A DNA stretch of 64,000 bases from Candidatus Zhuqueibacterota bacterium (GTDB lineage Bacteria > SM23-31), in NCBI GenBank assembly GCA_042564455.1, contig JBHPLC010000003.1:8394-72393 (forward strand), given 5' to 3'. Of this stretch, positions 8,836 through 25,004 are shown piece by piece. The translations under genes were made by a program, and so were the position numbers. The notes beneath the pieces are model-generated. The model was not told the DNA's origin. It searched no databases and worked only from the letters and a program-made list of their open reading frames with translations. The first letter of the stretch is position 1; every line of letters begins with the position of its first letter.

Positions 8836-9636
8836 CTAATTCAGCATTCCTTTTGAAATCTTTAATGACGGAACAGCATTTTTCAGTTGATATCTTAACG
8901 GGACCTCAATACCTATTTTCTCTAACACGCTCTGATTTTTCGTAAAAACTTTGTCAGGACTGTCATCAAGTATCAATTCCCCCTCGTTAAGAACAATCAG
9001 TCTGTCACAGAATAACGCTTCATAAGAAAATTGAGTAATCAATACTATGGAAAAACCATCTTTCTTCCTGTTTTTAAATCCACCGGTTAGCAGATCCGTG
9101 ATCATTTTTCTGTCTTCGGAATCAAGATATGAAGTCGATTCATCAAGGAAGAGATATTTGGGCATGGTGATCATAACAGATGCGATAGCAAGTTTTTGTT
9201 TTTGACCTCCGGAAAGCTGATTAGGCGAATATCCCTTTAAATCCTGCATCTGGAAATCACATATCGTTTTATTAACCTGTTTAATCATTTCTTCTTTGTC
9301 AACAGAGCGGTTCTCAAGAGCAAAAGCCAGTTCATGTTCGAGTACATTAGTTAATAGCTGGTTATCCGGATTCTGAAATACAATACCGGTAAGATCTCTG
9401 ATCTCTCTGGTTTTTAGCAGTGTATTTATATCTTTCTGATCGATAACGATAGTACCTGAAGATACCTGCCGTAGACCTGTCAGAGCTAATGCCAAAGTGG
9501 ATTTGCCCGAACCGTTAGGTCCGATAATACAAACAAATTCCGAATCATTAATTTCAAGCGATATATTTTTAAGTGCAAATATTGTTTTGCCGTCTGCGGA
9601 GGGATATTCGACACAAACATCTTTACATCTTATCAT
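8836..9636 (-). CDS. ABC ATPase, ECF-transporter EcfA/CbiO type (first of pair)
   Basis: GPNGSGKST, FQNPDNQL (CbiO hallmark), LSGGQKQKLAIA, LFLDESTSYLD. It overlaps the larC stop by 14 nt. Confidence 0.75.
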   Translation of the reverse strand: MIRCKDVCVEYPSADGKTIFALKNISLEINDSEFVCIIGPNGSGKSTLALALTGLRQVSSGTIVIDQKDINTLLKTREIRDLTGIVFQNPDNQLLTNVLEHELAFALENRSVDKEEMIKQVNKTICDFQMQDLKGYSPNQLSGGQKQKLAIASVMITMPKYLFLDESTSYLDSEDRKMITDLLTGGFKNRKKDGFSIVLITQFSYEALFCDRLIVLNEGELILDDSPDKVFTKNQSVLEKIGIEVPLRYQLKNAVPSLKISKGMLN

Positions 9637-10795
9637 CTGTTTTTCCTGATCGTTTAATCATATCATAGACTTTTTGCAGAGGAATATTTTCTTTCAAAGC
9701 AATCTTTTTACATTCCTCATATTCCGGAGCAATATATTTATCATTTTCAAAAACATAACTTTTAACTTTAATATCTCCAAATTCCGTTTTTACATTCTCA
9801 GATTCTCTTTTAAGTTTTTTCCTTGATGTTTCATACATCCTGACACCAATAGAAGAAGTCTCGCTAAAAATAGTCCTCAGGCATCGATCTGAAAAGGATC
9901 TGTCGGTTATAACACTTAATTTATAACCGGGACGGCCCTTTTTCATTAATATCGGTGTCAGAAAAGCATCAACTGCTCCGTCATTTAACAGGCGCTCGAT
10001 CACATACGGTAAAATTTCAGGATTCATATCATCGATATTTGTCTCAATGATCAGTTTGTTATCTTCTTCCAAGGTTTTTGCTGTTTCCCCTGTAATGATT
10101 CTTAGAACATTTGGAAAATCCTCAATATCTCTATCACCGCATCCATAACCTGTACCGGTTATTTTCATTTCGGGCAGCAGATCGACAAATTCGGCCAGTG
10201 AGGTTACAAGCGCTACTCCGGTAGGTGTTGCAAGCTCAAAACCTACTTCCTTTTTTTGTACGGGAAATCCCTCAGCTAATCCAAGAGAAGCCGGTGAGGG
10301 TACCGGTATAATCCCGTGTTCACATTTTACCGAGCCGGAACCCATTGTTATAGCTGAACAATATAGCTTTTCAATACCCAATTTTTCAATACCCCAGACA
10401 GTACCAAAGATATCAATCATTGAATCCATGCTGCCGACTTCATGAAAATGTACATCCTCTTTCGGTCTCTGATGTATCCCGCCTTCAATTTCAGCAATGC
10501 GTGTAAATATTTTAGTGATACTTTTTTTTGCGGTATCTGATAATTCAGATTTATCGACAATACTTAGGATATCGTTAAGTTTTCTATGGTGATGCGAGTG
10601 TTCGACTGTTACTGTAAAATTTATCGAATTAAAACCTTTTTTGTTTGTTCTTTCAGCCTTTAACTCAAAGGAATCTAATCCAACAGATCTCAAAAGTTCA
10701 TCTAATTCTTCGACTATTAAACCAAGATCGATTAGTGCTCCCAATATCATATCACCGCTTACACCGGCGAAACAATCAAAATATGCAGCTTTCAT
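9623..10795 (-). CDS. larC: LarC-family nickel insertion protein (DUF111, pyridinium-bisthiocarboxylate nickel chelatase-like)
   Basis: N-terminus MKAAYFDCFAGVSGDMILGALIDLG is the hallmark of LarC/UPF0272. About 390 aa with a His-rich stretch EHSHHH. Confidence 0.7.
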   Translation of the reverse strand: MKAAYFDCFAGVSGDMILGALIDLGLIVEELDELLRSVGLDSFELKAERTNKKGFNSINFTVTVEHSHHHRKLNDILSIVDKSELSDTAKKSITKIFTRIAEIEGGIHQRPKEDVHFHEVGSMDSMIDIFGTVWGIEKLGIEKLYCSAITMGSGSVKCEHGIIPVPSPASLGLAEGFPVQKKEVGFELATPTGVALVTSLAEFVDLLPEMKITGTGYGCGDRDIEDFPNVLRIITGETAKTLEEDNKLIIETNIDDMNPEILPYVIERLLNDGAVDAFLTPILMKKGRPGYKLSVITDRSFSDRCLRTIFSETSSIGVRMYETSRKKLKRESENVKTEFGDIKVKSYVFENDKYIAPEYEECKKIALKENIPLQKVYDMIKRSGKTDDKM

Positions 10796-10880: not shown

Positions 10881-12224
10881 TTATTTTTTCGCAAATTTCC
10901 ATAAACTTGCCTGTGCTTTACTGACCAATACATCAAATGTTTGTCCGTCCATCGGGAAATCGGAATATCCAAAATCCAGCAGTATATCATTACCTTTGAT
11001 ACTCGCATCTTCTTCAACCTGTTCTTTGATCTTGCTTGCAATCTTTTCGGTAAGAATTTTTGTTTTTCCCTGTAAAATGACCATAAATGAGTCAAGACCT
11101 ATCTTTACTGCGGAATCTATTGGAGTAATGTTCTTCTGGATATATCCGTAAATTAATTCACCAATATCAAATATCTTTATATTAAAATTGGCATTCTTTT
11201 TAAGATAAAGTTTAAAAATCAATATACTTAAAGTCCCTCTGTATTCACCGGCCTTTTTTATAATATTAAAGAGTTCATTCTTAGCGCCCGACAGCGGATC
11301 TGTTAACAGAGCTTTTCTTTCTTCATTATACTGACCCAACCTTATCATAGGAGCAATCTGAACTGCCATCACTTCAAGGAGTTTGAGTTTTTCCTGATCT
11401 TCGTTATCTTTCAGATCAAACTGGTTAACAATAAAAAGCCCGACCAGTTTATTCTGGGCATTAAGCGGGATAGCTATAAAACTTTTTATCTTTTTCTTGT
11501 CACTATCACCGACATTTTTCTTGAAATTCTCATCTTTTTTAAAACCGTCAATGTCAACTGTTTCATTTGGACGTATTGCCTGTCCAATTATTCCCTCTCC
11601 GAGTTTTATTCTGAATTTGGATATTGTCTTTTTTGACAATCCGATACTCTTTTCAATACAAAAATCCTCATTTTTTTCATCAAAAAGCATAATACTGACT
11701 ACATTTATATCCAGGCTTGTCTCAATAGTGCTTAGTCCGAAGCTTAATACTTCATCCATTTCCTCACTGGTATTAATGATTTTACTCACATCATTGAGGA
11801 TGGATATATCTGCCAGGGCTTTTTCAATTGTTTTTGACAATTCCAGATTTGTTCTTTTAAGCCTTATCCTTTCAGAAACCTTTTTTACGGTCATCAAAAT
11901 TTCTGAAATATTAAAAGGCTTAAAGATATAATCAAAAACATCCTGTTTCAGCGCTTCTATAGCAGATTCAAGGCTTGCATATCCGGTAATCACGATCACT
12001 TCCGTTTCTTTATTTGCCTTTTTTACTGCTTTTGTAACCTGTATACCGTCAACTTTCGGCATTTTCAGGTCAGTAATAACGATGTCATAGAAATTAGACT
12101 GGATATCTTTAACAGCTTTGACAGGATCAGTATAACTTTTAACACGGAAATCTGAACTTTCAAGAACTTCAGAAATAATTTCTATTACTCCCGGTTCATC
12201 GTCTACTATCAAGATGTTTTCCAT
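10881..12224 (-). CDS. response regulator: REC + GAF + degenerate GGDEF domain
   Basis: REC: ILIVDDE...ITDLKMP..G...K. Central GAF-like region. The C-terminal GGDEF fold is recognisable (LTDPLSGAKNE ~ LTGLPNR; KIGLDSFMVIL in place of RYGGEEFVVIL), so the active site is probably inactive. Confidence 0.65.
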   Translation of the reverse strand: MENILIVDDEPGVIEIISEVLESSDFRVKSYTDPVKAVKDIQSNFYDIVITDLKMPKVDGIQVTKAVKKANKETEVIVITGYASLESAIEALKQDVFDYIFKPFNISEILMTVKKVSERIRLKRTNLELSKTIEKALADISILNDVSKIINTSEEMDEVLSFGLSTIETSLDINVVSIMLFDEKNEDFCIEKSIGLSKKTISKFRIKLGEGIIGQAIRPNETVDIDGFKKDENFKKNVGDSDKKKIKSFIAIPLNAQNKLVGLFIVNQFDLKDNEDQEKLKLLEVMAVQIAPMIRLGQYNEERKALLTDPLSGAKNELFNIIKKAGEYRGTLSILIFKLYLKKNANFNIKIFDIGELIYGYIQKNITPIDSAVKIGLDSFMVILQGKTKILTEKIASKIKEQVEEDASIKGNDILLDFGYSDFPMDGQTFDVLVSKAQASLWKFAKK

Positions 12225-12292: not shown

Positions 12293-13930
12293 TTAAGTAA
12301 ATCTGGATTGGTAAGTGATCTTCATCTCTCCTTCCTTAGAGAAAACCATAGCCATTTTATATGTATATTCAGACATCATTTTACTCTGATCTATACTAAG
12401 AAGAACATTTCTGTAGATCGTGGTCGCCGAGATCTTCTTCTGCTCCTCGCTTATCATAACTTTAAATTCTTTTTGCAGCTCTTCTTTTTTCTTCTTAACA
12501 TCCTCCTTTTTCTCCTCTACTTTCTTCAGCTTTACCAATAATTCTTTCAGCTGTTTTGTTTTTGCTTCAGGAAATTTAGGAAGTTTCTTTTTAAGAAGTT
12601 CAATAAATTCTATCTCTTTTATCAGACTCTGTGATGCTTTTTCAAGATATGCTTCATCTCTTTCTATAATAAGCATCTTTTCGTATAATTCTCCTCCGAC
12701 ACGCCCCCCAACCTTAACATCCGTACGCAGATAACTTGCAGAACCGATAGTTTTTGCTTCTATTGATTTCTCAGCATAAAGTTTTCCGCCGATTATCGAT
12801 CCTCTGCCCTCTGTTGCTTTTATACTGTTTTCAGCGCTGACTATCGAATTCATAATATATTCGCCAACTGTAACATCATTTCCCACTTCAACAGTAGCCT
12901 CATTAATGAATTCAGCCCTGACATCCTTTGCTGCGATCAGTTTGGCTTTTTCCTGACCGACAACACCGCGGCTTATGACTATGTTTCCTTTCGATGAGAT
13001 AATTTCAGCGCCTTCAACAACACCCCTGATCCTGATATCACCTTCCGTCTTAACCTTAAATCCGGTTAAAACATCCCCTGATACCGCCACATCTCCGGTA
13101 AATTCAATATTTCCGGTTGAATAATCAACATCACCGTGAATTGCCAGAATGTTCTCTACGCTTAATCTGTCTTTTTGATGGACGATCCTGCCGCTTAAAG
13201 AAGCATACAAGGATAGTCCGTCCTGAGAAATATATGTATTTTTCCCCTGAGGCAGATTTTTATCTTTTCCGGTTGAATCTATAACCTCACCCAGGACATT
13301 CATTCCGTCCTGACCTTTTGTGGCAGGAATCTTTACAGCAAGCAATTGGTCTTTTTCAACTGTTCTGAGCATACTGATCTGATGAAAATCAACGCTGCCG
13401 TCATCCTTCACCAAAGGTTCTGTGCTGATATCGGTATCAACTTCAACTACTATCTGCGCTTCTTCACCGATCATTGCTTCTTCGCCTCTGGCTATTATCT
13501 CTTTCTCAACAAATATTCTATTTCTGATTATCTGTTTTATCTTTTCATAATCAACGTTATAGGTCACTCCCGATTCATATATCTTATGAAGGAGATCCCG
13601 TTCCGTGATTTCCACAGTATCAGTTGAGGGAAAGGTTACATCCAGGTAAGCTTCAAGAGCGTCTTTAGACACTGTAATCCGTATATAGTCATTTTTCTCT
13701 GATGAATATTCAACTAATGTATCAGCAATTTTAACAGGTTTCTTTAAGGTCTTCTTATATTGTTTGATAATATCATCATAAGGAGCCTCAAGTACTCCTA
13801 TCTGAAGTAACTTCTGTTCAAGAGTAGAAGAATCAAAACCATCCACATGTTCTGCATTGAAGACAAAAACACCCTCGTCTTCAATTTTCAAACCTAACTT
13901 TTCCAGTTCTTCTTTGTCAACGTAGCTCAT
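12293..13930 (-). CDS. FapA-like (DUF342) protein with beta-helix repeats and C-terminal K/E coiled coil
   Basis: Central repeats of the G-x-V/I pattern (NIEFTGDVAVSGDVLTGFKVKTEGDIRIRGVVEGAEIISSKGNIVISRGVVG...), typical of the DUF342/FapA beta-helix, followed by a lysine/glutamate coiled coil. Confidence 0.55.
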   Translation of the reverse strand: MSYVDKEELEKLGLKIEDEGVFVFNAEHVDGFDSSTLEQKLLQIGVLEAPYDDIIKQYKKTLKKPVKIADTLVEYSSEKNDYIRITVSKDALEAYLDVTFPSTDTVEITERDLLHKIYESGVTYNVDYEKIKQIIRNRIFVEKEIIARGEEAMIGEEAQIVVEVDTDISTEPLVKDDGSVDFHQISMLRTVEKDQLLAVKIPATKGQDGMNVLGEVIDSTGKDKNLPQGKNTYISQDGLSLYASLSGRIVHQKDRLSVENILAIHGDVDYSTGNIEFTGDVAVSGDVLTGFKVKTEGDIRIRGVVEGAEIISSKGNIVISRGVVGQEKAKLIAAKDVRAEFINEATVEVGNDVTVGEYIMNSIVSAENSIKATEGRGSIIGGKLYAEKSIEAKTIGSASYLRTDVKVGGRVGGELYEKMLIIERDEAYLEKASQSLIKEIEFIELLKKKLPKFPEAKTKQLKELLVKLKKVEEKKEDVKKKKEELQKEFKVMISEEQKKISATTIYRNVLLSIDQSKMMSEYTYKMAMVFSKEGEMKITYQSRFT

Positions 13931-13993
13931 AAATGTATTATCTTGTTACCTATATAAGATTTATTAAATTAATGCAGGAAATCCGATCAGAAA

Positions 13994-14590
13994 CTATTTT
14001 TGTTCTTCTGAACTTTCATCTTCTACAGAGTTTTGAGTTTCGTCCTGTACCACATCCTGTGTTTCATCCTTTACCGGATCAGGAGTTTCATCCTGTTCCT
14101 CGTTAGGACCATCAACGCCAGCCTGGTCTTCTACGATTTTTTCATCTTCACCAGTTTTTTCTGTTTCAACAGACGTTACAGGCAAACCTTCGACGAATTC
14201 GGCATTTTCCTCTTCACCTTCTTCTGGTGTTTCATTGACCACTTGTTCCATTTCAGATTGATCTTTTGAAACCGACACCTCTAAGTTACCTGTTTCAAGA
14301 TCGGCATCCAAAGGATCATCAACAGGTTTTTCCGAATAATCCAGCTGGATCTTTGCTGTTTTCCCGCAAGCACACTCAATATCAATACTATCGATCACAT
14401 TATCTTTTTTATAGACCTTTATAGTAAAAGATTCACCTTCAATGGTATCCTTTTGACCCAATAATTCCTGTGAATCTTCAACTGTAATATCTTCATCCGG
14501 GATCAATCTCTCTAAAGATCCCTCATTATCAATACTTTCGGGATCTGTGGCACTGATGTCGAGTAAATCAATAAAATTATCGTTTGCCAT
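13994..14590 (-). CDS. acidic hypothetical protein (D/E-rich, CxCG motif)
   Basis: 198 aa, first gene of the operon. The C-terminal half is strongly acidic low-complexity (DETQDVVQDETQNSVEDESSEEQK). I recognise no family. Confidence 0.4.
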   Translation of the reverse strand: MANDNFIDLLDISATDPESIDNEGSLERLIPDEDITVEDSQELLGQKDTIEGESFTIKVYKKDNVIDSIDIECACGKTAKIQLDYSEKPVDDPLDADLETGNLEVSVSKDQSEMEQVVNETPEEGEEENAEFVEGLPVTSVETEKTGEDEKIVEDQAGVDGPNEEQDETPDPVKDETQDVVQDETQNSVEDESSEEQK

Positions 14591-14810
14591 AATGAATTTC
14601 TAAAAATGCCTAGATAATGAATTTATATTAAATTTAAAATAAAGTCAAGGGAAATAAATCCCTTAATTTATATACTGTTTGCATTCTATTATCGTCAATT
14701 ATTAATAAAATTGTTATTATTTCGGATTATTTTAATTATCCCCTGTTTCACCTCTGGTGAATGATCTTTCTAATTTAAACATAATGTATGCAATATTTGC
14801 TCCTTAAGAC

Positions 14811-14846
14811 ATAAAAAAAGCCTCCCGGATGAGGAGGCTTTTTTTT
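14811..14846. terminator. bidirectional Rho-independent terminator
   Basis: aaaaaaaGCCTCCcggatgaGGAGGCtttttttt: a 6-bp GC stem flanked by an A-run and a T-run, 13 nt downstream of the TolC-like gene stop. Confidence 0.75.
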
Positions 14847-14858
14847 CAACAAAAACTG

Positions 14859-16451
14859 TTATCTACCGGTGATATACTGCTTAACCGTTTCATTCAGCGG
14901 ACAATCGTTCTCAAAATCCCAGAATGTAGTTTGATAAAGCCGGGACAATGCTGCAAGATAGTCTATTCTTGCATTAAGAATGTTCAACTGTGCAGATTTT
15001 AGTCTCTGGTTGGATATGTCAAGATCGTTGGTGGAGATATCCCCGAGATTGAATTTCTCAAGATTGATATCATAGGTTCTCTGTGCAAGCTCAACGTTAC
15101 CGCTCTGCAGTTCGATCCTCACCCTTGCATTATTAAGGTCTTCAAGGTTTTGCTGCACCGAGATATCAAGCTGTTCTATAGCATAATCCATGGCTTTTTC
15201 CGAAAGCTCAAGCTGCAGTTCGGATCTCTGTGTTCTGATCTTTCTTCTCCCTGAATCCCATATCGGAATGTTAAGACTAAGACCGAGGGAATTTGTTTGT
15301 GTAAAATCCTTAAAAAGTTCATCAGTCCAACTCCAATCTCCCCTCCAGAATTCGGCAAAAGGATCTGACTCATTCAAACCGTAAGATCCTGAAAGATTAG
15401 CCTGTATCTTATCCTGAGCCTGTGTTACCCTGATATTGTTTTTCTGGTCGATCAGACTGTTTCTTGATCGAAGCAAATTCAAACTGTTCTCAAGGGCTTT
15501 CTGTTTAGCAATCTCAGCATCGATATTAATAAACTGTATTTCAATACCTTCTTCTGCAGGTACATCTATCTCCTGATCCTGTTCCAGTCCGATAAGTCTT
15601 TTAAAGTTATCCTTTGCCTTACTGTAATTGAGTTTTTGCTGTTCAAAAGAGTTTTCGGCATTCTTGAAAGTCAGCTCATTCTCCATCATCTGAACTTCAG
15701 CAAGTATACCGGCAGCATATTTATTCTGTGCTGTTTCAAAATTAAATCTTGAATTTTCAAAATCCTTTTCATCGATCTCGAGGTTTCTTTTACTCCGAAC
15801 CAGACCATAATACGCTGATAAAACATCCCCCCATATACCGTTTTCTGTTCCTTCATAAGATTTTTCTGCATAATCAAAATCACGCATACTGCTTTCAAAT
15901 TCCATCATTTTAGTATTCGGCTGAAAAAGAGGCTGTGTCAACCTTAACCTGAAAGAATCAGTCCATCTGTGTGTTTCAGTGATTTTGCCATTGTTTTCAG
16001 AATACTGATTTGAAGTAGTGTATCCTGCTGTCAGTGAAAGGTCACTGTTCGTCCATCTCAACGGCTGTGTGATACTAAGGTTTGCATTTGTTGAAATGGT
16101 TTTATCGTTCCTGTAGACATTTCCAGTTGGTGTAGGTATTTCACGGATACTCTGATTATAAGATGGTAGGTTAAATGATAACCTGGTACTCGTTTTCTGG
16201 TTTGCCAGGCTTAACTGGCGCCCGAGATCGCTGATCTCAAAATTAGTTCTGCTTGTTTTGATATTATAACTCTGTGTTAACGCTATCTGCAGCGCATCTT
16301 CAAGTGTCAATACCATTACATCCTGGCCAATACCATCCGCCGGTATGGCAAAAAGAAAGGCAAACACCATTATAAGGTTCAAATAAGCCGCCTTCGACTT
16401 CAACAACTTCGCTTTCAACATTTCAAAACTCCTTTGATATTTTCTGTTCAA
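14859..16451 (-). CDS. TolC-like outer membrane efflux protein (OEP family)
   Basis: Signal peptide, then two repeats of the helix/strand pattern with a leucine/glutamine-rich alpha-barrel. The start more likely is the internal Met at 16421 (MLKAKLL...). Confidence 0.6.
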   Translation of the reverse strand: MNRKYQRSFEMLKAKLLKSKAAYLNLIMVFAFLFAIPADGIGQDVMVLTLEDALQIALTQSYNIKTSRTNFEISDLGRQLSLANQKTSTRLSFNLPSYNQSIREIPTPTGNVYRNDKTISTNANLSITQPLRWTNSDLSLTAGYTTSNQYSENNGKITETHRWTDSFRLRLTQPLFQPNTKMMEFESSMRDFDYAEKSYEGTENGIWGDVLSAYYGLVRSKRNLEIDEKDFENSRFNFETAQNKYAAGILAEVQMMENELTFKNAENSFEQQKLNYSKAKDNFKRLIGLEQDQEIDVPAEEGIEIQFINIDAEIAKQKALENSLNLLRSRNSLIDQKNNIRVTQAQDKIQANLSGSYGLNESDPFAEFWRGDWSWTDELFKDFTQTNSLGLSLNIPIWDSGRRKIRTQRSELQLELSEKAMDYAIEQLDISVQQNLEDLNNARVRIELQSGNVELAQRTYDINLEKFNLGDISTNDLDISNQRLKSAQLNILNARIDYLAALSRLYQTTFWDFENDCPLNETVKQYITGR

Positions 16452-16650
16452 TATTTATATTTATAATTGATCTTTATCAGCAAATTTCAAATTTTAAGAG
16501 TATTTCAGTTTGTTTGACAAATTATATACAATTAAGTTTGTTTTTTGTTCAATTTGAGTCAAATATTAGCAGAATTATTACAAAATATTAATTTTTATAC
16601 ACTTTTCAGCCATTTTTATAGAATAAGACTAAAATAGTAGTATAAAAGTT

Positions 16651-19600
16651 CTAATTTCTTTTATCCTGCGGATTTAAATTTAAAGGAATGAACCGAACCG
16701 CATCAGCATATAACCATCCATCCGCCTCATCTGATAAAACAACAGCAGCATTTTCCCCCATTTCAAAATAATAGCTGCCGAGGCTGTTCCATCCTGCCGG
16801 GAGGAAATGCCATTCTAAAGAGACACTTTCTATACCCCCGCTATGATGAACAGAATAATTATACCTTGTTGCAGAATTCCTTGTAAATGAGTTTGATTCC
16901 CCCTTCCCCTTAAAGAGGAAAACCTGCACATCATAAAGTCCTGACTCAGGCATTTCAGTTTCCCAAGTTGCAGGGATACTTCCCGATCCTTTTCTTTTTT
17001 CCCTGTAAGTTACCTTATACTTTCCGAAAGCATCATCATCAAGCCTTATTCTCCATACCTCCCTTACTTCTGATGGTCTTAAGAACTTCCGTTCCTGCTC
17101 ACGAAAAGCAGAAAAACCCGGATCGAGGTCATCAACAATAATTCCTTCAACCTCCAGGTTGTCGGTAATAATCTCTTTTATACCGTCCCAGGCTGTAACC
17201 TTTTCAAAATCCTCAGGAACCTGCAGTCTTTCTCTAATAGCACTCTGATTCTGTGAGAAAATCGGATCGATAATGATCTCTGTAGGAACATCTTCCGTTA
17301 TAAATCCGAACATCAGTTCCTGTTTTCCATTTATTCTGCTTTTCTTTGTTATTTCATCATTCTTGGTCTTTAAACTGACCTTCAAAAATCCCTCATAATT
17401 TTCACCATTTTTTATTTTCAGATCAACCACATACTGAACACCCTTTTCTCCGCCTTTTGTTTTAAAAACTTCGAGGTTGGTGACCTTGTAACCCGGAAAC
17501 GCATTTCCAAATAACCAGCTGTCAAAAAACCAGTCCAGGGATTCACCTGATACTTCTTCACAGACCTTCTTGAAATCAAGGATCGAGGCATCTTTGTAAC
17601 TGTACTCCTGCACAAATTTATTAAGTATCCGTTTGTATTTTTCCGGTGTGATGATCTCTCTTAAAACCTTGTTTATTTTTTCCCCTTTCACCATCATCAG
17701 AACATGAAAATTATTATTATTCAGATCGGGTTCGATCTCTGTCAGGGAGGTCGATCTTATCAACTGATACAATGTGTCTACGGGCACTCCGTAATCTCTC
17801 TCAAACTCCATAACTTCCCATTCCACACCTTCAATTACAAAATACGGATCGCTGCGGTTTGTTACAAAGAACTTTATTTCCTCATTTATCAGATTCTGCA
17901 GATAATTATCAAAATAATACTCAAAAACGGGGTACGGGGAATCAACAAAATTCAGTCTCTGTGACCAGAAACTTGACATTGGGGCCGGTATTAGATTTTC
18001 CTCCATTACGCGTTCGAACATTCTTACTTTATTCTTGAAGATCTTATTAACAATAATATCGACAAACATATCTTTTTTTATGTCAGCATCACTTTTTTTC
18101 TCACCTTTTCTATCAGCATTGTTTTTTGCTCTCTCGAACTTCTCCTCATAAGAACCTGCCACATTATATTCCGGAACAAAAATAATTCCGGCCTGCGCGG
18201 ATTCATCAGACATCAATCCGTTAAAAGCATAGTATTGAAATGTTAATGGTATCTCAATATAAGACAGACTTGAATATGGATAATCCAGTCCTGTTAATTC
18301 TTCAATACCCCGGAAAATATCTTCTACTATCGGTTTGATCTCTCCTGTGACTTCAGAGAAAAACTCAGCAATTACCTGATGTTTTTCACTTAAAACCAGG
18401 TTGATATTTATTCCGCTTATATCAGTCGAGTACATCCGATATCTTCCTGTAACCAGAGGGATGCTTTTAATTGGAATATCCGTACCGTATGTAAATACTT
18501 TTCTGCCCTGTGAACTTGTTGAGTCTATTCCGATAAGATCCACCGGCGCTACAGCAGTCAGGTCTTCCGGAAGATCAAATGTCCATTTTCCTGTAAAAAA
18601 CTGTACAGGGAATTTTTCAGGATACATATAGGCATATGGATTCCCCAGCTGCGGATACCATAAACTTTCCTTCAATAGATACCCAAAATCTCTTGTTAAT
18701 ATCGACGATTCATTTTCAAATGTTGCTATAGGGACCATAATACCGTTATTTGGTTTATTTATCACACCCGGATCAATGTCACTTCTGTTCAGGTAAAGTA
18801 TCCTTTTATCAATATCCCCCTGAAATTCAAAAATGATCTGCCGTTTTTCACCTTCGGAGAACGGTTTGTCCAGTTTAACGGATATTTCGATGTCATTTCT
18901 TGAATAGTTCAGGTTATTCCCGTTACCACCTGAAATTTTCCTGATCTCAAGGCCTGGATTCAAAGAAAACTGAATTTCGTTATAATCAAGATCAGATTTT
19001 GCCTCAAGTTCGATCTTCGAGACACCCAAGACAGGAATACCATCACTGTAAAACTTATAATCAAGATCGTAATTTCTGATATAATAATTACTGTCGGATT
19101 CTTTATTAAATGAAATAGTGATTATATCGTGTTTTTCATTTTTACGTTCGGCTTCTGCGATCCAGGAAGAATAGAATATAAATAATGCCCCGGCAAGACA
19201 CCCCAGGCCGCCGAATGAGGTCAGGTTAGCATAAAACTTTGACTGGTGCAGCCTCGGATAAAATAACACTACTGTCAGGCTAAAGAAGAAAACTCCTAAA
19301 AGAACGTAGAAGATCCTCTGTTTTATAAATATTGCCTCATTCAGTATATCAACAAGATCAGAGGGAAATAACGGAAGAAAAAATCCCACATAATCTGTAA
19401 ATATCCATAGCTGATTTAAAGTGAAAGCATGGTCTCTGGATAAAAGGAACATACCAATGGTATAAGCCATAACAAGTGTAAAAACAGCAGCGGTATTTCT
19501 TATCAACGAAGATATGAATATAATAAATGCTGTTGAATAAAAAAGTGCCGGTATATACAGCAGAGCAAAATATTTGAAATAAAGATCAAGTGACCATGAC

Positions 19601-20007
19601 CAGTTGACAAGCCTGTTGACTAAAGACAGAATAAGAACAACAGATGATGTAAGTAGAATTAATGGAATAACAATACCAAGAAATTTTCCCAAAATATATT
19701 CAAGGTTTGTCATAGATTTGGTATTCATGACTTCATTGACCTGGTATCTGCTGTCTTTCTCGCGGAAATCCCCTGAAAGAAAAATTACGATCAGTATCTG
19801 GAAAATATTGAAATAATAGAACAATACATAAGGTCCTGTGCCTTCAAGGCCTGCCGCTCCGAATTCAACTCCGAACCTTTTTGAAATTATAAAATACACA
19901 TTAAAAATTATCGGTAATATGGCAGATAGGATTGCCAATATCCAGAACTTCCAGGTCCTGACAAGCATCAGTGATTCATATTTTGCTATAGTAAAAAGAT
20001 ATTTCAT
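16651..20007 (-). CDS. ABC-2-type permease (N-terminal about 290 aa, 6 TM helices) fused to about 830-aa extracytoplasmic domain
   Basis: The N-terminal multi-TM region resembles ABC-2 permeases. It lies immediately downstream of an ABC-2 ATPase. No HExxH or GAMEN motif in the exodomain. Confidence 0.55.
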   Translation of the reverse strand: MKYLFTIAKYESLMLVRTWKFWILAILSAILPIIFNVYFIISKRFGVEFGAAGLEGTGPYVLFYYFNIFQILIVIFLSGDFREKDSRYQVNEVMNTKSMTNLEYILGKFLGIVIPLILLTSSVVLILSLVNRLVNWSWSLDLYFKYFALLYIPALFYSTAFIIFISSLIRNTAAVFTLVMAYTIGMFLLSRDHAFTLNQLWIFTDYVGFFLPLFPSDLVDILNEAIFIKQRIFYVLLGVFFFSLTVVLFYPRLHQSKFYANLTSFGGLGCLAGALFIFYSSWIAEAERKNEKHDIITISFNKESDSNYYIRNYDLDYKFYSDGIPVLGVSKIELEAKSDLDYNEIQFSLNPGLEIRKISGGNGNNLNYSRNDIEISVKLDKPFSEGEKRQIIFEFQGDIDKRILYLNRSDIDPGVINKPNNGIMVPIATFENESSILTRDFGYLLKESLWYPQLGNPYAYMYPEKFPVQFFTGKWTFDLPEDLTAVAPVDLIGIDSTSSQGRKVFTYGTDIPIKSIPLVTGRYRMYSTDISGININLVLSEKHQVIAEFFSEVTGEIKPIVEDIFRGIEELTGLDYPYSSLSYIEIPLTFQYYAFNGLMSDESAQAGIIFVPEYNVAGSYEEKFERAKNNADRKGEKKSDADIKKDMFVDIIVNKIFKNKVRMFERVMEENLIPAPMSSFWSQRLNFVDSPYPVFEYYFDNYLQNLINEEIKFFVTNRSDPYFVIEGVEWEVMEFERDYGVPVDTLYQLIRSTSLTEIEPDLNNNNFHVLMMVKGEKINKVLREIITPEKYKRILNKFVQEYSYKDASILDFKKVCEEVSGESLDWFFDSWLFGNAFPGYKVTNLEVFKTKGGEKGVQYVVDLKIKNGENYEGFLKVSLKTKNDEITKKSRINGKQELMFGFITEDVPTEIIIDPIFSQNQSAIRERLQVPEDFEKVTAWDGIKEIITDNLEVEGIIVDDLDPGFSAFREQERKFLRPSEVREVWRIRLDDDAFGKYKVTYREKRKGSGSIPATWETEMPESGLYDVQVFLFKGKGESNSFTRNSATRYNYSVHHSGGIESVSLEWHFLPAGWNSLGSYYFEMGENAAVVLSDEADGWLYADAVRFIPLNLNPQDKRN

Positions 20008-20020
20008 ATTATTAGATCAG

Positions 20021-20953
20021 TTAAGCATTTATAAGAATTTCATCTTCATGTAATTTTGTACCTGTCTGAATCTCCATAAAGTAAATATAAGCATCTTCCA
20101 GGTTAGGTTCAGCAGGAACTGCCGAAAACCCGTTGACTTCATCAGATACCACCCTGACTTCAACACATTCCGGCTGCATGATCATGGACAAGACACTGAC
20201 ATTTTCCTTCAGCAATCCCAGTTCATCGTGTCCTATCTTTAGTATCCATGTTTTTCCCCGGGCGTTATCTATCAGATTAGCCGGTTTATCATGATAGACT
20301 ATTTCACCTTCGTGCAGAATTGCCAGGTCATTACAAGTACTTGATATATCATTAACAATATGTGTAGATAAAACAATAGTGACATGGCCGCTTAATTCCG
20401 ACAGCAGATTCCTGAACCTGATCCTCTCTTCCGGATCGAGACCTGTAGTCGGTTCATCAACGATCAGAAGCTTTGGAGAATTTACCAGAGCCTGTGCGAT
20501 CCCGAGCCTGCGCACCATTCCTCCTGAGAACGTCTTTACTTTTCTGTCCTTCAAATCCTGCAGATTAGTCAGGGACATTATCCAGTCGACGACTTTTTTC
20601 CTGTGCTTTTTATCTTTCATCCCGTTGAGTTTTGCAATATAATGGAGAAATTCCTGCGCATACAATGTCGGGAAAACCCCGAATTCCTGCGGCAGGTATC
20701 CTAACGAACGCCTGATTTTCTCCCGATCCTTTGAGAAATCATGGCCAAAAACAGATATTTTACCTGATGTAGGCATTGACAGTGTTGCCAGTATCTTCAT
20801 CAATGTAGTTTTCCCTGCCCCATTTGGTCCCAACAGACCAAACATACCATTCTCTATCGACAGTGAAATATCTTTAAGTGCGGCAAATTTAGATTTCCCT
20901 TTGCCGTAGACTTTCCATATGTTATTTATTTCAATGGTACTGTTCATAGTCAA
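20021..20953 (-). CDS. ABC transporter ATP-binding protein (ABC-2 subfamily)
   Basis: GPNGAGKTT, FSGGMVRRLGIAQAL, LIVDEPTTGLD, H-loop LSTH. 13-nt gap to the permease-fusion gene. Confidence 0.85.
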   Translation of the reverse strand: MTMNSTIEINNIWKVYGKGKSKFAALKDISLSIENGMFGLLGPNGAGKTTLMKILATLSMPTSGKISVFGHDFSKDREKIRRSLGYLPQEFGVFPTLYAQEFLHYIAKLNGMKDKKHRKKVVDWIMSLTNLQDLKDRKVKTFSGGMVRRLGIAQALVNSPKLLIVDEPTTGLDPEERIRFRNLLSELSGHVTIVLSTHIVNDISSTCNDLAILHEGEIVYHDKPANLIDNARGKTWILKIGHDELGLLKENVSVLSMIMQPECVEVRVVSDEVNGFSAVPAEPNLEDAYIYFMEIQTGTKLHEDEILINA

Positions 20954-21065
20954 TATTATTATAAGATATTATTTGTTTTAGGTTTACGGTATTAAAAAAC
21001 CAATGTTTCGAATTACATAAAAATGATCATTTCTGATAATATTATGTTAAGTCGCGGAAAGGATA

Positions 21066-22031
21066 TTATGGAAGAATTTCCACTTTTAATAATGTACCGT
21101 TACGACCACCTACCATACCTGTTTCATAATTTATAAAGAAAACGGAAATATAATCTTCTAAAATTCCGGTTTCAAGCTTATACCAGCTGCTTCCTCCATC
21201 AGTAGTATAAAGAAATAATCCATTATTGCCGACCGCCCAGCCTTTTGTATTATCAATAAAGAAAACATCATTAATTTTCAAATCACTGATACTGGATAAT
21301 TCATCCCAGGTCTTCCCTGAATTTCCTGTCTTCCAGATACCGTTTTCTTTACCGACCGCCCAGCCGAGATCTTTATCTAAGAAAAATAATCTAACATAAG
21401 CAGGCTTTATTTCAGAATCGCTTTCTATCCAGTTCAATCCCCTGTCATTTGTAAACAGAACTTTATCTTCCACAAGCAAAATACCATAATTATTACCCGG
21501 AAAACAGATATCATGCAAGACTTTTTTTGTGACAAATCCCTCTTTCCAGGTAATTCCCGCATCATCAGTATATATAACAGCATTATTATTATCCGTCATG
21601 CTGTTCCCTAAAATAAAACCGGAATTATTATCTGAAAATTCTATAGACTTCAGGTCAAGATTATCTTCAGATACAACAGATGAACTCCAGGATCTCCCGT
21701 CGTTATCAGATCTTAGAGTCCTGCTTTCGTCACATGTAACAAAAATACTATTATCAAAATATTCAATTCTGTTCAGTTTAGTACCGTCAGGCTGTCTGGT
21801 CCTTTCCCATATATCACCCATGTCTCCGGTAATATATATTGAACCCATACTTCCGATAATAATGATGGAACTGTCATTATAAGCACAGATATCACAGAAA
21901 TCTTCATCAGAAACCAGATCAATTTTCCAGAAACTATAATCTGTAGATTCTTTATTGAATTTACAGTAAAAACAATAAGCAATCAGAATAGTAAATACAC
22001 CTAAAAGAATATGTTTAAAACTTGATCTCAG
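21066..22031 (-). CDS. BNR/Asp-box beta-propeller protein (Ycf48-like), probable signal peptide and CTG start
   Basis: Asp-box motifs TGNSGKTW, TTDGGSSW, DDAGITW. The ATG-only ORF starts at 21848, but the frame stays open upstream. That extension encodes a signal-peptide-like segment (RSSFKHILLGVFTILIAY) and is preceded by AGGAGA 7 nt before an in-frame CTG at 22031. Confidence 0.5.
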   Translation of the reverse strand: MRSSFKHILLGVFTILIAYCFYCKFNKESTDYSFWKIDLVSDEDFCDICAYNDSSIIIIGSMGSIYITGDMGDIWERTRQPDGTKLNRIEYFDNSIFVTCDESRTLRSDNDGRSWSSSVVSEDNLDLKSIEFSDNNSGFILGNSMTDNNNAVIYTDDAGITWKEGFVTKKVLHDICFPGNNYGILLVEDKVLFTNDRGLNWIESDSEIKPAYVRLFFLDKDLGWAVGKENGIWKTGNSGKTWDELSSISDLKINDVFFIDNTKGWAVGNNGLFLYTTDGGSSWYKLETGILEDYISVFFINYETGMVGGRNGTLLKVEILP

Positions 22032-22400
22032 TTTATTTCTCCTGCTTAATATAAAGACGTATAAATTGCGATTTATATTTCACTTACTTTTTTATTTAAA
22101 GTTCCTGACGACATCTTGCCATAGTATATATTGGGAAAAAATAGATAATTATGATCAATTTGAACATTAAGATGTTAATGTACCAACCTTTTACCAAATA
22201 AACTCTTGACATAAATAATATACATTTGTATATTATTAATATACTTAAGTATACTATTGTGCATTATATAATTTCATCGGTTTATATATAAACCAGAATA
22301 TTAAGAGTATCTTATTAACATTTAATCCACATAATTATCAACATGTTGTGGATAACAAATATATAAACAACAACATATTGGATATTTTTCGATTTTTCTC

Positions 22401-22429
22401 TTGACAATTGGCTGTGTTTAGAATATATT
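22401..22429 (+). promoter_or_regulatory. sigma70-type promoter TTGACA-N17-TATATT upstream of nrdJ
   Basis: Exact -35 consensus at 22401-22406, a 17-nt spacer, -10 TATATT at 22424-22429. SD AGGAGA 8 nt before the nrdJ ATG. Confidence 0.55.
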
Positions 22430-22493
22430 GTAATGCCCCGTTAATATGTAGATTTATCCTCCCAAAAAACAGTGAAAATTAGGAGAGTTTATT

Positions 22494-25004
22494 ATGCCCA
22501 AAGATTCTGATGAAAACATGATTCAATTTGATTCAGATGAGAAAGAAACTACAAAAAAACCACGAGCACGGAAGAAGAAAAATGATCAGACTCCGGGACC
22601 GGTTAGAGAGATACTTGAAATTTCTAAAAAATCAACTAAATCAACAGATATAGAAGCAAATGATAATAATATAATTTCTGATGAGCCTGTTCCTAAGGTT
22701 CTGGAACTTACGGAAAACTCCAAAAAAGTATTAGAAAAGAGATATTTATTAAAGGATGATACAGGGGAAATCATTGAAACTCATGAGGAAATGTTCAGAA
22801 GAGTTGCAAAATGCGCTGCAGAAGCTGAAAAAGAATATGATCCGGATTATAATGCAAAGAACCTTGAAGATAAATTCTACGGAATGATCGCAAGGCTGGA
22901 GTTCATGCCAAACTCACCTACTCTGATGAATGCAGGGAAAGACCAGGGACAGCTTTCAGCCTGTTTTGTTTTGCCGGTTGAAGATTCCATGGAAGGCATT
23001 TTTGATTCCATAAAAAATGCTGCTTTGATCCACAAGACCGGCGGCGGTACCGGTTTTGCATTTTCCAGATTGCGCCCTAAGAATGATGTAGTGCTGTCAA
23101 CTCACGGAGTTGCCAGCGGCCCGGTATCATTTATGAGAGTATTTGATTCTGCCACAGAGGCTGTAAAACAGGGTGGTACCAGAAGAGGTGCAAACATGGG
23201 GATATTAAGGATAGACCATCCGGATATCCTTGAGTTCATTACCTGTAAGTTTGACAATAACAGAGTTAATAATTTTAATATTTCTGTTGCACTCACGGAA
23301 GACTTTATGGATAAAGTCGAAAATGACGGAGAGTATGATCTGATCAGTCCCAGAAGCAAGAAAGTGATCAATACATTAAGTGCAGGCAGGATTTTCGATC
23401 TTATAGTAAATATGGCCTGGAAGAATGGTGATCCGGGGATAATCTTTCTTGACAGGATCAATAAGGACAATCCCACTCCGGAAGTTGGAGAAATAGAAAG
23501 CACAAATCCATGCGGGGAACAACCTCTTCTGCCTTTTGAAGCATGTAATCTTGGTTCTTTAAATCTCCATAAAATGCTGCAGAGAAAAAACGGCAAATGC
23601 AAAATAGACTATGACAAACTGAGAAAAACAGTCCATAACTGTATCCATTTTCTTGATAATATTATAGATGCCAATTATTACCCGTTACCAGAGATTGATA
23701 CAATGGTGAAAGAAAACAGAAAAATTGGTCTCGGGATCATGGGATTTGCCGATATGCTGATCGAACTTGAGATACCTTACGACTCAAAAGAGGCTTTGGA
23801 GATCGGTGAAGAAGTAATGAGCTTTATCAATAAAGAGTCAAAAGTAAAATCCATGGAGCTTGCTCAGAAAAAAGGAGCATTCCCTAACTTTGAGAATTCA
23901 ATCTATGGTAAAACAGGTCTTCCTCAAATAAGAAATGCTACAAATACTACAATAGCGCCGACCGGTACAATAAGCATTATATCCAACTGTTCGAGCGGAA
24001 TAGAACCGATTTTTGCAGTATCATATTACAGAAATGTTATGGATAACGAAATCTTAGTGGAAGTAAATCCGTTGTTTGAAAGAATAGCAAAAGAATGCGG
24101 TTTTTACAGTGAAGAGCTAATGAAGAAAATCGCAGAACACGGTACAGTTCAGGATATTGAAGAGGTGCCTGAAGAAATAAGGAAATTATTTGTTACTGCT
24201 CATGATATTTCTCCTGAAGCTCATATTAGAATGCAGGCTGCATTCCAGAAACACTGCGATAACGCTGTTTCGAAAACCGTTAATTTTTCTAATGATTGCA
24301 CAGCGGATGACATCTCAAAAGTATATAAATTGGCATACGAATTGGGATGTAAGGGGGTCACGGTTTACCGGGACCGCTGCAGAGAAACACAGGTTTTAAA
24401 TATAGCACATAAAGAGGAAGAAAAACCAATTGAGGTTGAATCAGGTAAGACTTTTGATCGCCAGGAGACTGTCAGAGATGAAGAGTCAAAAATTATTCCC
24501 CGTAAGAGGGGAAAGATCACCTATGGGGCAACTGAGAAAATTGTGACCAGCGATGGTACACTTTATGTCACTATCAATCAGGATGAATTCGGTTTATGCG
24601 AGGTATTTACTAATATTGGCAAACATGGAAGTGACGCCGCGGCATGGTCGGAGGCTGTAGGTAGATTGATCTCATTATGTCTGCGTTCAGGGGTTTCATT
24701 GAGATCGATCGTTAAACAGCTGCGCGGTATTACCAGCAGACCCATCTGGCAGGATGGAATTCAAATCTTATCGGTACCCGATGCCATCGGAAGAGCTCTT
24801 TCAAGATATGTAAATGATGAAGGAATAGAAATTAAGATCCCGATCTCTACCGGCCAGAATGCAGCGCAGGAAGTTTTGGAAGAGCACTCATTTACTATTG
24901 ATCAAAAAACAGAATTTTCCTCCTGTCCGGATTGCGGAAGCCCTGTAGAACATGAAGGTGGATGTATGGTTTGCAGAAGTTGCGGTTTTTCCAGATGCGG
25001 TTAA
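22494..25004 (+). CDS. nrdJ: ribonucleotide reductase, class II (adenosylcobalamin-dependent), monomeric type
   Basis: 836 aa. The ten-stranded RNR barrel active-site blocks are recognisable (finger-loop Cys region NPCGEQPL, SNCSSGIEP). C-terminal CxxC...CxxC zinc ribbon (CPDCG...CMVCRSCG), typical of NrdJ. Confidence 0.8.
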   Translation: MPKDSDENMIQFDSDEKETTKKPRARKKKNDQTPGPVREILEISKKSTKSTDIEANDNNIISDEPVPKVLELTENSKKVLEKRYLLKDDTGEIIETHEEMFRRVAKCAAEAEKEYDPDYNAKNLEDKFYGMIARLEFMPNSPTLMNAGKDQGQLSACFVLPVEDSMEGIFDSIKNAALIHKTGGGTGFAFSRLRPKNDVVLSTHGVASGPVSFMRVFDSATEAVKQGGTRRGANMGILRIDHPDILEFITCKFDNNRVNNFNISVALTEDFMDKVENDGEYDLISPRSKKVINTLSAGRIFDLIVNMAWKNGDPGIIFLDRINKDNPTPEVGEIESTNPCGEQPLLPFEACNLGSLNLHKMLQRKNGKCKIDYDKLRKTVHNCIHFLDNIIDANYYPLPEIDTMVKENRKIGLGIMGFADMLIELEIPYDSKEALEIGEEVMSFINKESKVKSMELAQKKGAFPNFENSIYGKTGLPQIRNATNTTIAPTGTISIISNCSSGIEPIFAVSYYRNVMDNEILVEVNPLFERIAKECGFYSEELMKKIAEHGTVQDIEEVPEEIRKLFVTAHDISPEAHIRMQAAFQKHCDNAVSKTVNFSNDCTADDISKVYKLAYELGCKGVTVYRDRCRETQVLNIAHKEEEKPIEVESGKTFDRQETVRDEESKIIPRKRGKITYGATEKIVTSDGTLYVTINQDEFGLCEVFTNIGKHGSDAAAWSEAVGRLISLCLRSGVSLRSIVKQLRGITSRPIWQDGIQILSVPDAIGRALSRYVNDEGIEIKIPISTGQNAAQEVLEEHSFTIDQKTEFSSCPDCGSPVEHEGGCMVCRSCGFSRCG

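Follow-up and report, generated by a model that had tools for sequence, protein, structure and literature searches.

An ABC-2 permease fused to a catalytically dead M1-aminopeptidase fold and a Golvesin_C domain is encoded with a TolC-family channel in a KSB1 bacterium and its relatives

We analyzed a 64,000-nucleotide stretch of DNA from Candidatus Zhuqueibacterota bacterium (GenBank assembly GCA_042564455.1, contig JBHPLC010000003.1, positions 8,394 to 72,393; hereafter the window), in which three consecutive minus-strand genes encode an ATP-binding cassette (ABC) ATPase, a fusion protein of 1118 amino acids (aa) and a TolC-family outer-membrane channel. The fusion protein combines an ABC-2 permease with a catalytically dead M1-aminopeptidase fold and a Golvesin_C domain, and it belongs to a large, uncharacterized family of the FCB group (Fibrobacterota-Chlorobiota-Bacteroidota and relatives). 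The architecture is real, widespread and unstudied, and it is a variation on ABC-2 transporters and TolC-linked efflux. From this solid architecture we infer substrate and mechanism: with a probability of roughly 45%, the trio would be an ATP-driven, non-hydrolytic ABC-2 machine whose exodomain binds a ligand or hands it over and which works with a TolC-type duct.

The three open reading frames (ORFs) lie where an earlier note, made from the DNA letters, had placed an ABC-2 ATPase, a large polypeptide and a TolC-like protein, and Pfam agreed with these assignments. The ATPase gene (20021-20953, minus strand) encodes a DrrA/NosF/GldA-like protein of 310 aa that scored 117.9 bits with ABC_tran. 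Its Walker A (GPNGAGKT), signature (SGGM), Walker B (LLIVDEPT) and H-loop motifs are intact in the sequence, and it carries a C-terminal extension of ~75 aa. After a gap of 13 bp follows the fusion gene (16651-20007, minus), whose product is 100% identical to the NCBI entry 'M1 family aminopeptidase [candidate division KSB1 bacterium]'. Above the Pfam cut-offs, this product had two matches, one of residues 764-831 to the C-terminal part of the Peptidase_M1 catalytic domain (29.4 bits; cut-off 27.7) and one to Golvesin_C. The third gene (14859-16451, minus; 530 aa from TTG 16451) encodes the channel, an outer-membrane efflux protein (OEP) with two Pfam OEP repeats (137.2 bits) and a TIGR01844 subfamily score of 89, under the cut-off of 225. 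As read from the sequence, its N-terminus is a hydrophobic signal peptide that lacks a lipobox Cys.

The N-terminal membrane domain of the fusion protein (residues 1-283; 19159-20007, minus) has an ABC-2 permease fold of type V, NosY-like, with a seventh helix added to it. Hydropathy and an AlphaFold2 (AF2) model of the whole protein (pLDDT 85.3, pTM 0.82) both gave seven hydrophobic helices and an N-terminal amphipathic helix, so that the ABC-2 permease suspected in the earlier note was recovered but its count of six helices was not. In the model, an amphipathic interface helix (residues 2-17) precedes the ABC-2 core helices (19-45, 57-86, 101-135, 140-169, 172-193 and 224-249), and a long transmembrane (TM) helix 7 (257-300) runs into the beta-rich domains. 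The RLxQS loop between TM6 and TM7 is conserved, and R252 within it is invariant. When the AF2 model of residues 1-305 (pLDDT 85.0) was searched with Foldseek, the best PDB matches were NosY structures (7o0z, 7o0y and 7znq; TM-score 0.50-0.61), and PmtCD and ABCG ranked after them, all with probability 1.0 and TM-scores of 0.43-0.61. Pfam ABC2_membrane matched seven of 10 N-termini, mostly below threshold and in one of the 10 above the cut-off, and the window protein scored 16.7 bits with this family against a cut-off of 26.9. ABC2_membrane_2 was detected at E<=0.01 in 17 of 44 family members, with a best value of 2.9e-8. The alternative allowed for in the earlier note, that residues 1-290 would lack an ABC-2 topology, was thus contradicted by the recovered fold.

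Both termini of an ABC-2 core are cytoplasmic. Because the fusion protein has this core plus an extra seventh helix, the remaining ~835 aa are predicted to be periplasmic, and the distribution of Lys and Arg over the loops, as read from the sequence, agrees with that placement. The very large extracytoplasmic domain described earlier is therefore supported by the predicted topology and by the position of TM7 in the AF2 model.

Residues 305-950 (17158-19095, minus) have the fold of an M1 aminopeptidase, composed of an N-terminal beta domain, a thermolysin-like 'catalytic' domain and a beta-sandwich domain III. Foldseek against the PDB aligned residues ~305-950 over ~640 columns with IRAP, ERAP1, ERAP2 and APN (E 7e-18), hhalign gave a 98.4% probability for residues 305-822 against an M1-like protein, and a sequence search of the PDB with the family profile matched M1 structures in two places, the N-terminal domain and the final part of the catalytic domain. 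Motifs of the M1 scaffold are kept, namely LWYP (450-452), YPY (576-578), VE585xP587, Q605-P, E613, K774-G, W831 and P838-G-Y. The helical ERAP1_C domain had no Pfam match in the fusion protein. Of the checks that the earlier note had proposed, structure prediction thus delivered the M1 fold, and the profile scan of the exodomain recovered the end of Peptidase_M1 but neither ERAP1_C nor GldG, while also revealing the unforeseen Golvesin_C domain.

These observations support descent of the exodomain from an M1 peptidase, and by its sequence it is now a pseudo-peptidase in which every catalytic element has been lost. Neither HExxH nor GAMEN was present anywhere in the 1118-aa protein, and the interval between residues 544 and 767 is devoid of His. 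In the window protein, I651-I-V-N-K655 stands where HExxH would align, and across the family the positions aligned with HExxH, with the third ligand and with the catalytic Tyr are hydrophobic or variable; in the family alignment, the third zinc-ligand position varies and the Tyr position corresponds to M772. The GAMEN position reads SDESA, where the only residue kept is E602, which aligns with the GAMEN Glu. This position is acidic in ~33 of the 46 members, the window protein with its E602 among them, and one of the 46 (P0127) retains GAMEN intact, left over from the active ancestor. Where M1 enzymes have an N-terminal-domain Glu to anchor the amine of the substrate, the family has the invariant Y451 of the LWYP motif. 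This residue-level catalytic mapping crosses a part of the alignment that has low confidence, but the lack of His holds independently of any alignment. HExxH was absent from the catalytic position in the 150 best relatives and in all 156 proteins examined, in agreement with the pseudo-peptidase anticipated in the earlier note.

The NCBI name, together with a Peptidase_M1 match just above threshold over the last 68 residues of the domain, would suggest an ordinary, active, membrane-anchored M1 aminopeptidase. However, the missing HExxH and GAMEN motifs, the His-free interval and the lack of conservation at the third-ligand and Tyr positions recur as the same losses in all 150 best relatives. 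An active peptidase is therefore refuted at the sequence level, and we give it next to no credence. A second pseudo-M1 lineage, independent of this one, is represented by a 686-aa metagenomic protein (P0008), a secreted M1-like protein with C-terminal TPR repeats whose zinc motif has degenerated from HExxH to NTIAH.

The C-terminal module (residues 992-1106; 16690-17034, minus), which had escaped the earlier note, is a Golvesin_C beta-sandwich (PF25275; 63.4 bits against a cut-off of 31.6 in the window protein). In this region, the family profile matched residues 929-1039 of the Paenibacillus xanthan lyase structure 6f2p (E 7.5e-13). Golvesin_C was found in all 44 sampled members, among which Peptidase_M1 was detectable in 23, and the region contains a conserved ADAV motif and the invariant residues W985, W1015 and W1073. 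The domain class CBM6-CBM35-CBM36_like_2, common to golvesin and xanthan lyase, is present in the Bacteroides lectins Cbeg4 and Cbeg5 (PMC9166713). The Golvesin_C module of the fusion protein is a putative glycan-binding module. The label CBM84 was considered for this domain and rejected; CBM84 belongs to the xanthanase PspXan9 (6FHJ).

The fusion had been regarded as unusual, a view that the family search overturned. A word-indexed search returned 8 relatives only. An exhaustive profile search, by contrast, yielded 977 representatives (clustered at 50% identity) with E<=1e-30; among the 150 top-scoring ones, almost all had a length of ~1100 aa and aligned from end to end. A scan of one genome per species gave 80 loci, mostly from Bacteroidota (Prolixibacteraceae, Saprospiraceae, Saccharicrinis, Tannerellaceae and Parabacteroides), with further carriers in KSB1, Latescibacterota, Calditrichales, Gemmatimonadales, Chlorobiota and Glassbacteria; these loci were retrieved with two peptide patterns taken from the family, a sampling that is not unbiased. 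Used as a metagenome query, an alignment of the KSB1 subfamily described below returned six loci, of which L088, L090 and L092 were new and informative, and a single-protein query returned none. The homologues from gut Parabacteroides fall into clusters with thousands of member sequences. Public databases name family members 'golvesin C-terminal-like domain-containing protein', 'xanthan lyase', 'M1 family aminopeptidase' or NosY-type permease (COG1277, Joint Genome Institute). In consequence, ~1000 sequence clusters, including proteins of human-gut Parabacteroides, carry names that do not describe the protein, and 'M1 family aminopeptidase' and 'xanthan lyase' are misleading, asserting enzyme activities that the sequences do not support.

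To compare gene neighborhoods, ORFs in all loci were labeled with phmmer and hmmsearch profiles seeded from the window and from locus L001, and loci with enough flank served as denominators. The ATPase gene lies directly upstream of the fusion gene in 79/85 loci, and three of the six misses are ORF-overlap artefacts in which the ATPase is there (L036, L056 and L065). The OEP gene lies directly downstream in 69/72 loci, which confirmed the co-conservation with the TolC-like gene that the earlier note had suggested examining. A membrane-fusion protein (MFP) gene was present in 56/60 loci, an RND gene in 54/57 and a second RND gene in 48/52. The typical unit is thus a cluster of six genes in the order ATPase, fusion, TolC-like channel, MFP, RND, RND, and a gene order that recurs in more than 80 independent loci is far beyond chance. 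The adaptor of Parabacteroides is of the RND_mfp/MdtA-like type, and its pair of pumps resembles MdtB and MdtC; in most relatives such adaptor and RND genes run in the same direction as the trio. The gap between the fusion and OEP genes has a median of 32 bp over all loci, with frequent overlaps, and measures 200-1260 bp in the KSB1-subfamily loci. For distant loci, the rank correlation between the divergence of the fusion and that of the OEP gave no information (rho -0.13). The MFP gene and the two MdtB/C-like RND genes are the context that matters most, and the earlier note had not seen them. Its comparison with tripartite exporters needs change, since a classical exporter of this type requires an MFP and none was found in the 64-kb window; in most relatives, MFP and two RND genes follow the trio.

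The same comparison bears on the GldA/GldF/GldG-type organization that had also been proposed. The top NCBIfam models for the ATPase were DrrA (202.6 bits) and GldA (194.5 bits), both under their cut-offs, and the second rank of GldA and the concentration of the family in Bacteroidota would fit an ABC system of gliding motility. The GldA score is nevertheless set against a cut-off of 402.6, Pfam and NCBIfam scans gave no GldF- or GldG-type (ABC_transp_aux) match, and the genes next to the family are efflux components rather than gld or spr genes. Moreover, the family is abundant in gut Parabacteroides and occurs also in KSB1, Latescibacterota and Gemmatimonadales. We consider a gliding-motility system very improbable.

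Several loci depart from the typical arrangement in other ways. A contig from a metagenome-assembled genome labeled 'archaeon' (L011, 1067-14759) has the ATPase-fusion pair twice in tandem, upstream of OEP and MFP genes; it is probably a mis-binned bacterial contig that shows tandem duplication of the pair. In L008 (8001-11256) and L065 (7917-11457), two overlapping ORFs take the place of a single fusion gene, owing either to a frameshift in a pseudogene or to an assembly error. Judged from sequence, an ORF resembling an extracytoplasmic function (ECF)-type sigma factor lies within 3.5 kb upstream of the ATPase gene in 16 Bacteroidales-type loci (for example, L028 5198-5824; L036 5456-5908 and 6529-6963), and a subset of these loci also encodes a small membrane protein, possibly an anti-sigma factor, and a DUF6249 protein. 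This hints that the cluster may be regulated by envelope stress.

The window belongs to a small, KSB1-centered subfamily with its own layout. Its fusion protein is 43-53% identical to those of L002, L003, L004, L007, L008, L009 and L088, 32% identical to that of L080 and 22-27% identical to the main group. Its OEP is 35-48% identical to OEPs of the subfamily and 24-28% identical, over ~500 aa, to those of the six-gene clusters. In the window, L002 and L088, the OEP gene stays beside the ABC pair though no MFP or RND gene follows it: L002 has no MFP gene in the 700 bp past the OEP gene, and L088 has no MFP or RND gene in 8 kb downstream. L088, which comes from a 54-kb contig, is syntenic with the window on both sides (ribonucleotide reductase, ATPase, fusion, OEP, acidic protein, FapA, response regulator, LarC and EcfA). 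Between the two, the fusion protein (45% identity), the OEP (39%) and the acidic protein (41%, partial alignment) are the most diverged, and the other neighbors are 52-76% identical. The order ATPase-fusion-OEP is common to subfamilies whose other neighbors are completely different. Both copies occur in the KSB1 isolate B69T1L10, one of the window type (L007, 50% identity) and one of the main family (L069, 26%), and the subfamilies are therefore paralogues able to coexist in one genome. In L080 (2511-11046; KSB1 single-amplified genome AM-311-M08), a fusion homologue lies without adjacent ATPase or OEP gene and is followed by M29 and M28 family peptidase genes, as judged by family assignment.

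In the mechanism that we favor, two ATPase and two fusion subunits would assemble as an ABC-2 machine. ATP binding and hydrolysis would move the membrane helices, and a rigid TM7 stalk would pass this motion to the pseudo-peptidase and to the glycan-binding module; alternatively, ATP might be used to expel an amphiphile from the membrane. The exodomain would capture a molecule of the envelope, or pass it on, and would leave it uncleaved; this cargo would be amphiphilic and perhaps glycosylated or peptide-like, and it would exit the cell via the TolC-like duct. In most lineages, genes for an MdtA-like adaptor and an MdtB/C-like RND pair accompany those of the ABC module, which therefore probably feeds or assists a TolC-linked efflux assembly. 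A precedent for a periplasmic partner that is driven by a NosY-type ABC-2 complex is NosDFY, in which copper passes from NosL to NosD within NosDFY and on to NosZ (bioRxiv 10.64898/2025.12.16.694761).

A number of observations weigh against this mechanism, and the missing adaptor is its main weakness. No MFP or RND match was found anywhere in the 64-kb window at E<=1, and to our knowledge every characterized TolC-dependent transporter needs a membrane-fusion protein; direct ABC-to-TolC coupling is thus hypothetical in the window. An adaptor may be encoded outside this stretch, the OEP may work for other pumps, or the exodomain may itself span the periplasm. Because synteny between the window and L088 extends over the entire region, the OEP adjacency in the KSB1 subfamily may reflect slow rearrangement rather than selection, and an AT-rich spacer of 229 bp with promoter-like hexamers permits separate expression of the OEP gene. 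In two high-GC metagenome loci with overlapping junctions (L090, 3211-15516; L092, 3642-15917), which represent a third cluster arrangement, ATPase and fusion genes are followed by MFP-RND-RND with no OEP gene between, and in L006, L079 and L080 the fusion gene has no adjacent ATPase gene. The Foldseek E values for the membrane domain are modest (from 2e-3) and are based on a predicted model, the glycan binding of Golvesin_C is inferred from the family name only, and literature searches on permease/M1 fusions, on the Pfam domain pairs and on the name given by the NCBI annotation pipeline (PGAP) found nothing relevant on any member.

Some of the same observations would be accounted for by a mechanotransducer resembling NosDFY, in which nothing crosses the inner membrane. 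ATP would then cycle the exodomain through ligand loading, unloading or remodeling, or would regulate the RND pumps, and the TolC-like protein would serve these or other pumps. NosY is the closest structural relative of the membrane domain, NosDFY hands over copper through the periplasmic NosD instead of acting as a classical exporter, and the exodomain here is large, highly conserved and rigidly joined by the continuous TM7. In addition, the OEP gene is mostly followed by MFP-RND-RND, the usual owners of TolC, and the MFP gene comes immediately after the fusion gene in L090 and L092. The true exporters PmtCD and ABCG are, however, also among the closest folds, the window lineage keeps the OEP adjacent although no RND or MFP gene is nearby, and Pfam detected no NosD-, NosL- or NosZ-like partner among the ORFs from 12293 to 25004. 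We therefore regard a mechanotransducer as doubtful, though worth serious attention.

A different division of labor would make the genes independent modules. The ABC pair would be a self-protection pump of the LanFEG/PmtCD type that clears membrane-active peptides or amphiphiles from the inner membrane, with the dead peptidase as a peptide trap, and the TolC-like gene would be a remnant of an ancestral six-gene arrangement that serves other systems. The M1 fold binds peptides, and the acidic residue kept at the GAMEN-Glu position in most of the aligned members and the intact GAMEN of P0127 are in line with such a trap, as are the presence of the peptide exporter PmtCD among the best fold matches, the resemblance of the ATPase to lantibiotic-protection ATPases (below cut-off) and the M29/M28 aminopeptidase genes beside the fusion gene in L080. 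The upstream ECF sigma factor of 16 loci would fit envelope-stress control of a pump of this kind. That a peptide N-terminus is recognized in the canonical way is nevertheless unlikely, because the amine-anchoring Glu is replaced by Y451 and the zinc site is gone, and the tight, often overlapping junctions with OEP or MFP genes in 69/72 loci argue for co-function. Taken together, we find independent modules unlikely.

In a bolder version of the ABC-2 machine with a TolC-type duct, the clusters would represent a new class of envelope machine that places an ABC-2 motor and an RND pair on one TolC duct. The exodomain would serve as a periplasmic bridge or substrate gate and, in the KSB1 subfamily, would dock to the TolC-like channel with no MFP. 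We hold this to be a long shot. If true, the KSB1 docking would constitute the first adaptor-less TolC-dependent transporter.

The boundaries of the transcription unit were examined in the window. The most likely start of the OEP gene is ATG 16421 rather than the TTG 16451 of the ORF list: it sits with good spacing behind an AAGGAG Shine-Dalgarno sequence and would give a 520-aa product that starts MLKAKLL. The AT-rich spacer between the fusion and OEP genes (16452-16650, minus) measures 229 bp with this start and contains promoter-like hexamers at 16520-16491 in addition to the AAGGAG sequence; a consensus scan found no terminator-like site in it. The same type of scan placed a terminator-like hairpin 190 bp past the OEP stop codon (14645-14666, minus), which is probably the end of the transcription unit. 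An Rfam scan of the region gave sub-threshold chance matches only.

Directly upstream of the ATPase gene lies a BNR/Ycf48-like beta-propeller gene (21066-22031, minus; Pfam PSII_BNR). It is present at this position in the window, L002, L003 and L008 and absent in the syntenic L088, and it is possibly an accessory gene of the cluster, with uncertain membership. The gene is listed as 260 aa from ATG 21848, but the frame remains open as far as 22079, and an alignment of 322 aa with the L002 homologue reaches 22031. No ATG, GTG or TTG was found for the extended N-terminus. Translation probably begins at the rare start codon CTG (22031), which lies behind an AGGAGA sequence (22043-22038) and would give the protein an N-terminal membrane anchor.

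On the other side, between the OEP and FapA genes, the window encodes an extremely acidic protein of 198 aa (13994-14590, minus) whose C-terminal half is rich in Glu, Asp and Gln. It matched no Pfam or NCBIfam family, and L088 has a shorter homologue at the equivalent place (41% identity over 98 aa). The FapA gene (12293-13930, minus) is followed by genes that appear, from sequence, to encode a response-regulator-like protein (10881-12224, minus) and a LarC-like protein (9623-10795, minus), and then by another ABC-type ATPase gene (8836-9636, minus). A B12-dependent ribonucleotide reductase gene with a TSCPD domain (22494-25004, plus) flanks the cluster upstream. These five flanking genes, from FapA to the reductase, have no relation to the finding, and all of them are syntenic in L088.

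The re-use of a peptidase fold without catalysis in an ABC-2 plus pseudo-peptidase module is new among the periplasmic attachments of ABC-2 proteins. The combination of TolC, MFP and two RND pumps with an ABC module points to an undescribed ABC-plus-RND combination in Bacteroidota and related phyla; we know of no characterized operon that encodes both an ABC-2 pump and an RND pair, and none came up in literature searches. Cultured carriers include Parabacteroides species, Portibacter lacus, Roseimarinus sediminis and Plebeiibacterium sediminum.

Compared with known systems, NosFY and NosDFY supply the best structural match to residues 1-305 and likewise tie an ABC-2 module to a large periplasmic moiety. 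In NosDFY, however, that moiety is NosD, a separate beta-helix protein that works with NosL and NosZ, none of which is found here, whereas in the fusion protein it is joined through the seventh helix and consists of the M1 fold and Golvesin_C; the family has TolC, MFP and RND genes rather than nos genes as neighbors. The exodomain shares the fold of domains I-III and the scaffold motifs YPY...VExP, KG and W..PGY with M1 aminopeptidases (PepN, APN, ERAP1/2, IRAP and tricorn factor F3), but it lacks the HExxH-E zinc site, GAMEN, the catalytic Tyr and the N-terminal-domain Glu, has Golvesin_C in place of the helical ERAP1_C domain and is fused to an ABC-2 permease. Like the Golvesin_C proteins, namely the xanthan lyase C-terminal domain, Cbeg4 and Cbeg5, the fusion protein matches PF25275 and 6f2p over its C-terminal ~115 aa, but here the domain is tethered to a membrane machine.

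Among TolC-linked assemblies, MdtABC-TolC and MacAB-TolC similarly co-encode a TolC-family channel with an inner-membrane energy module. Most relatives of the window cluster share further features with them, an MdtA-like adaptor and an MdtB/MdtC-like RND pair; the ABC part, however, is of type V (ABC-2) rather than of the MacB type, and the window has no adaptor. The PmtCD and ABCG exporters share the fold class of the membrane domain and a DrrA-like ATPase, but they have neither the seventh helix nor a large C-terminal exodomain and are not TolC-linked. In its way of working, the fusion protein most resembles NosFY together with a periplasmic partner, or else an ABC-2 exporter. Because the defining features of the Nos, Gld, MacAB and active M1 systems were looked for and found lacking, it is a member of none of them.

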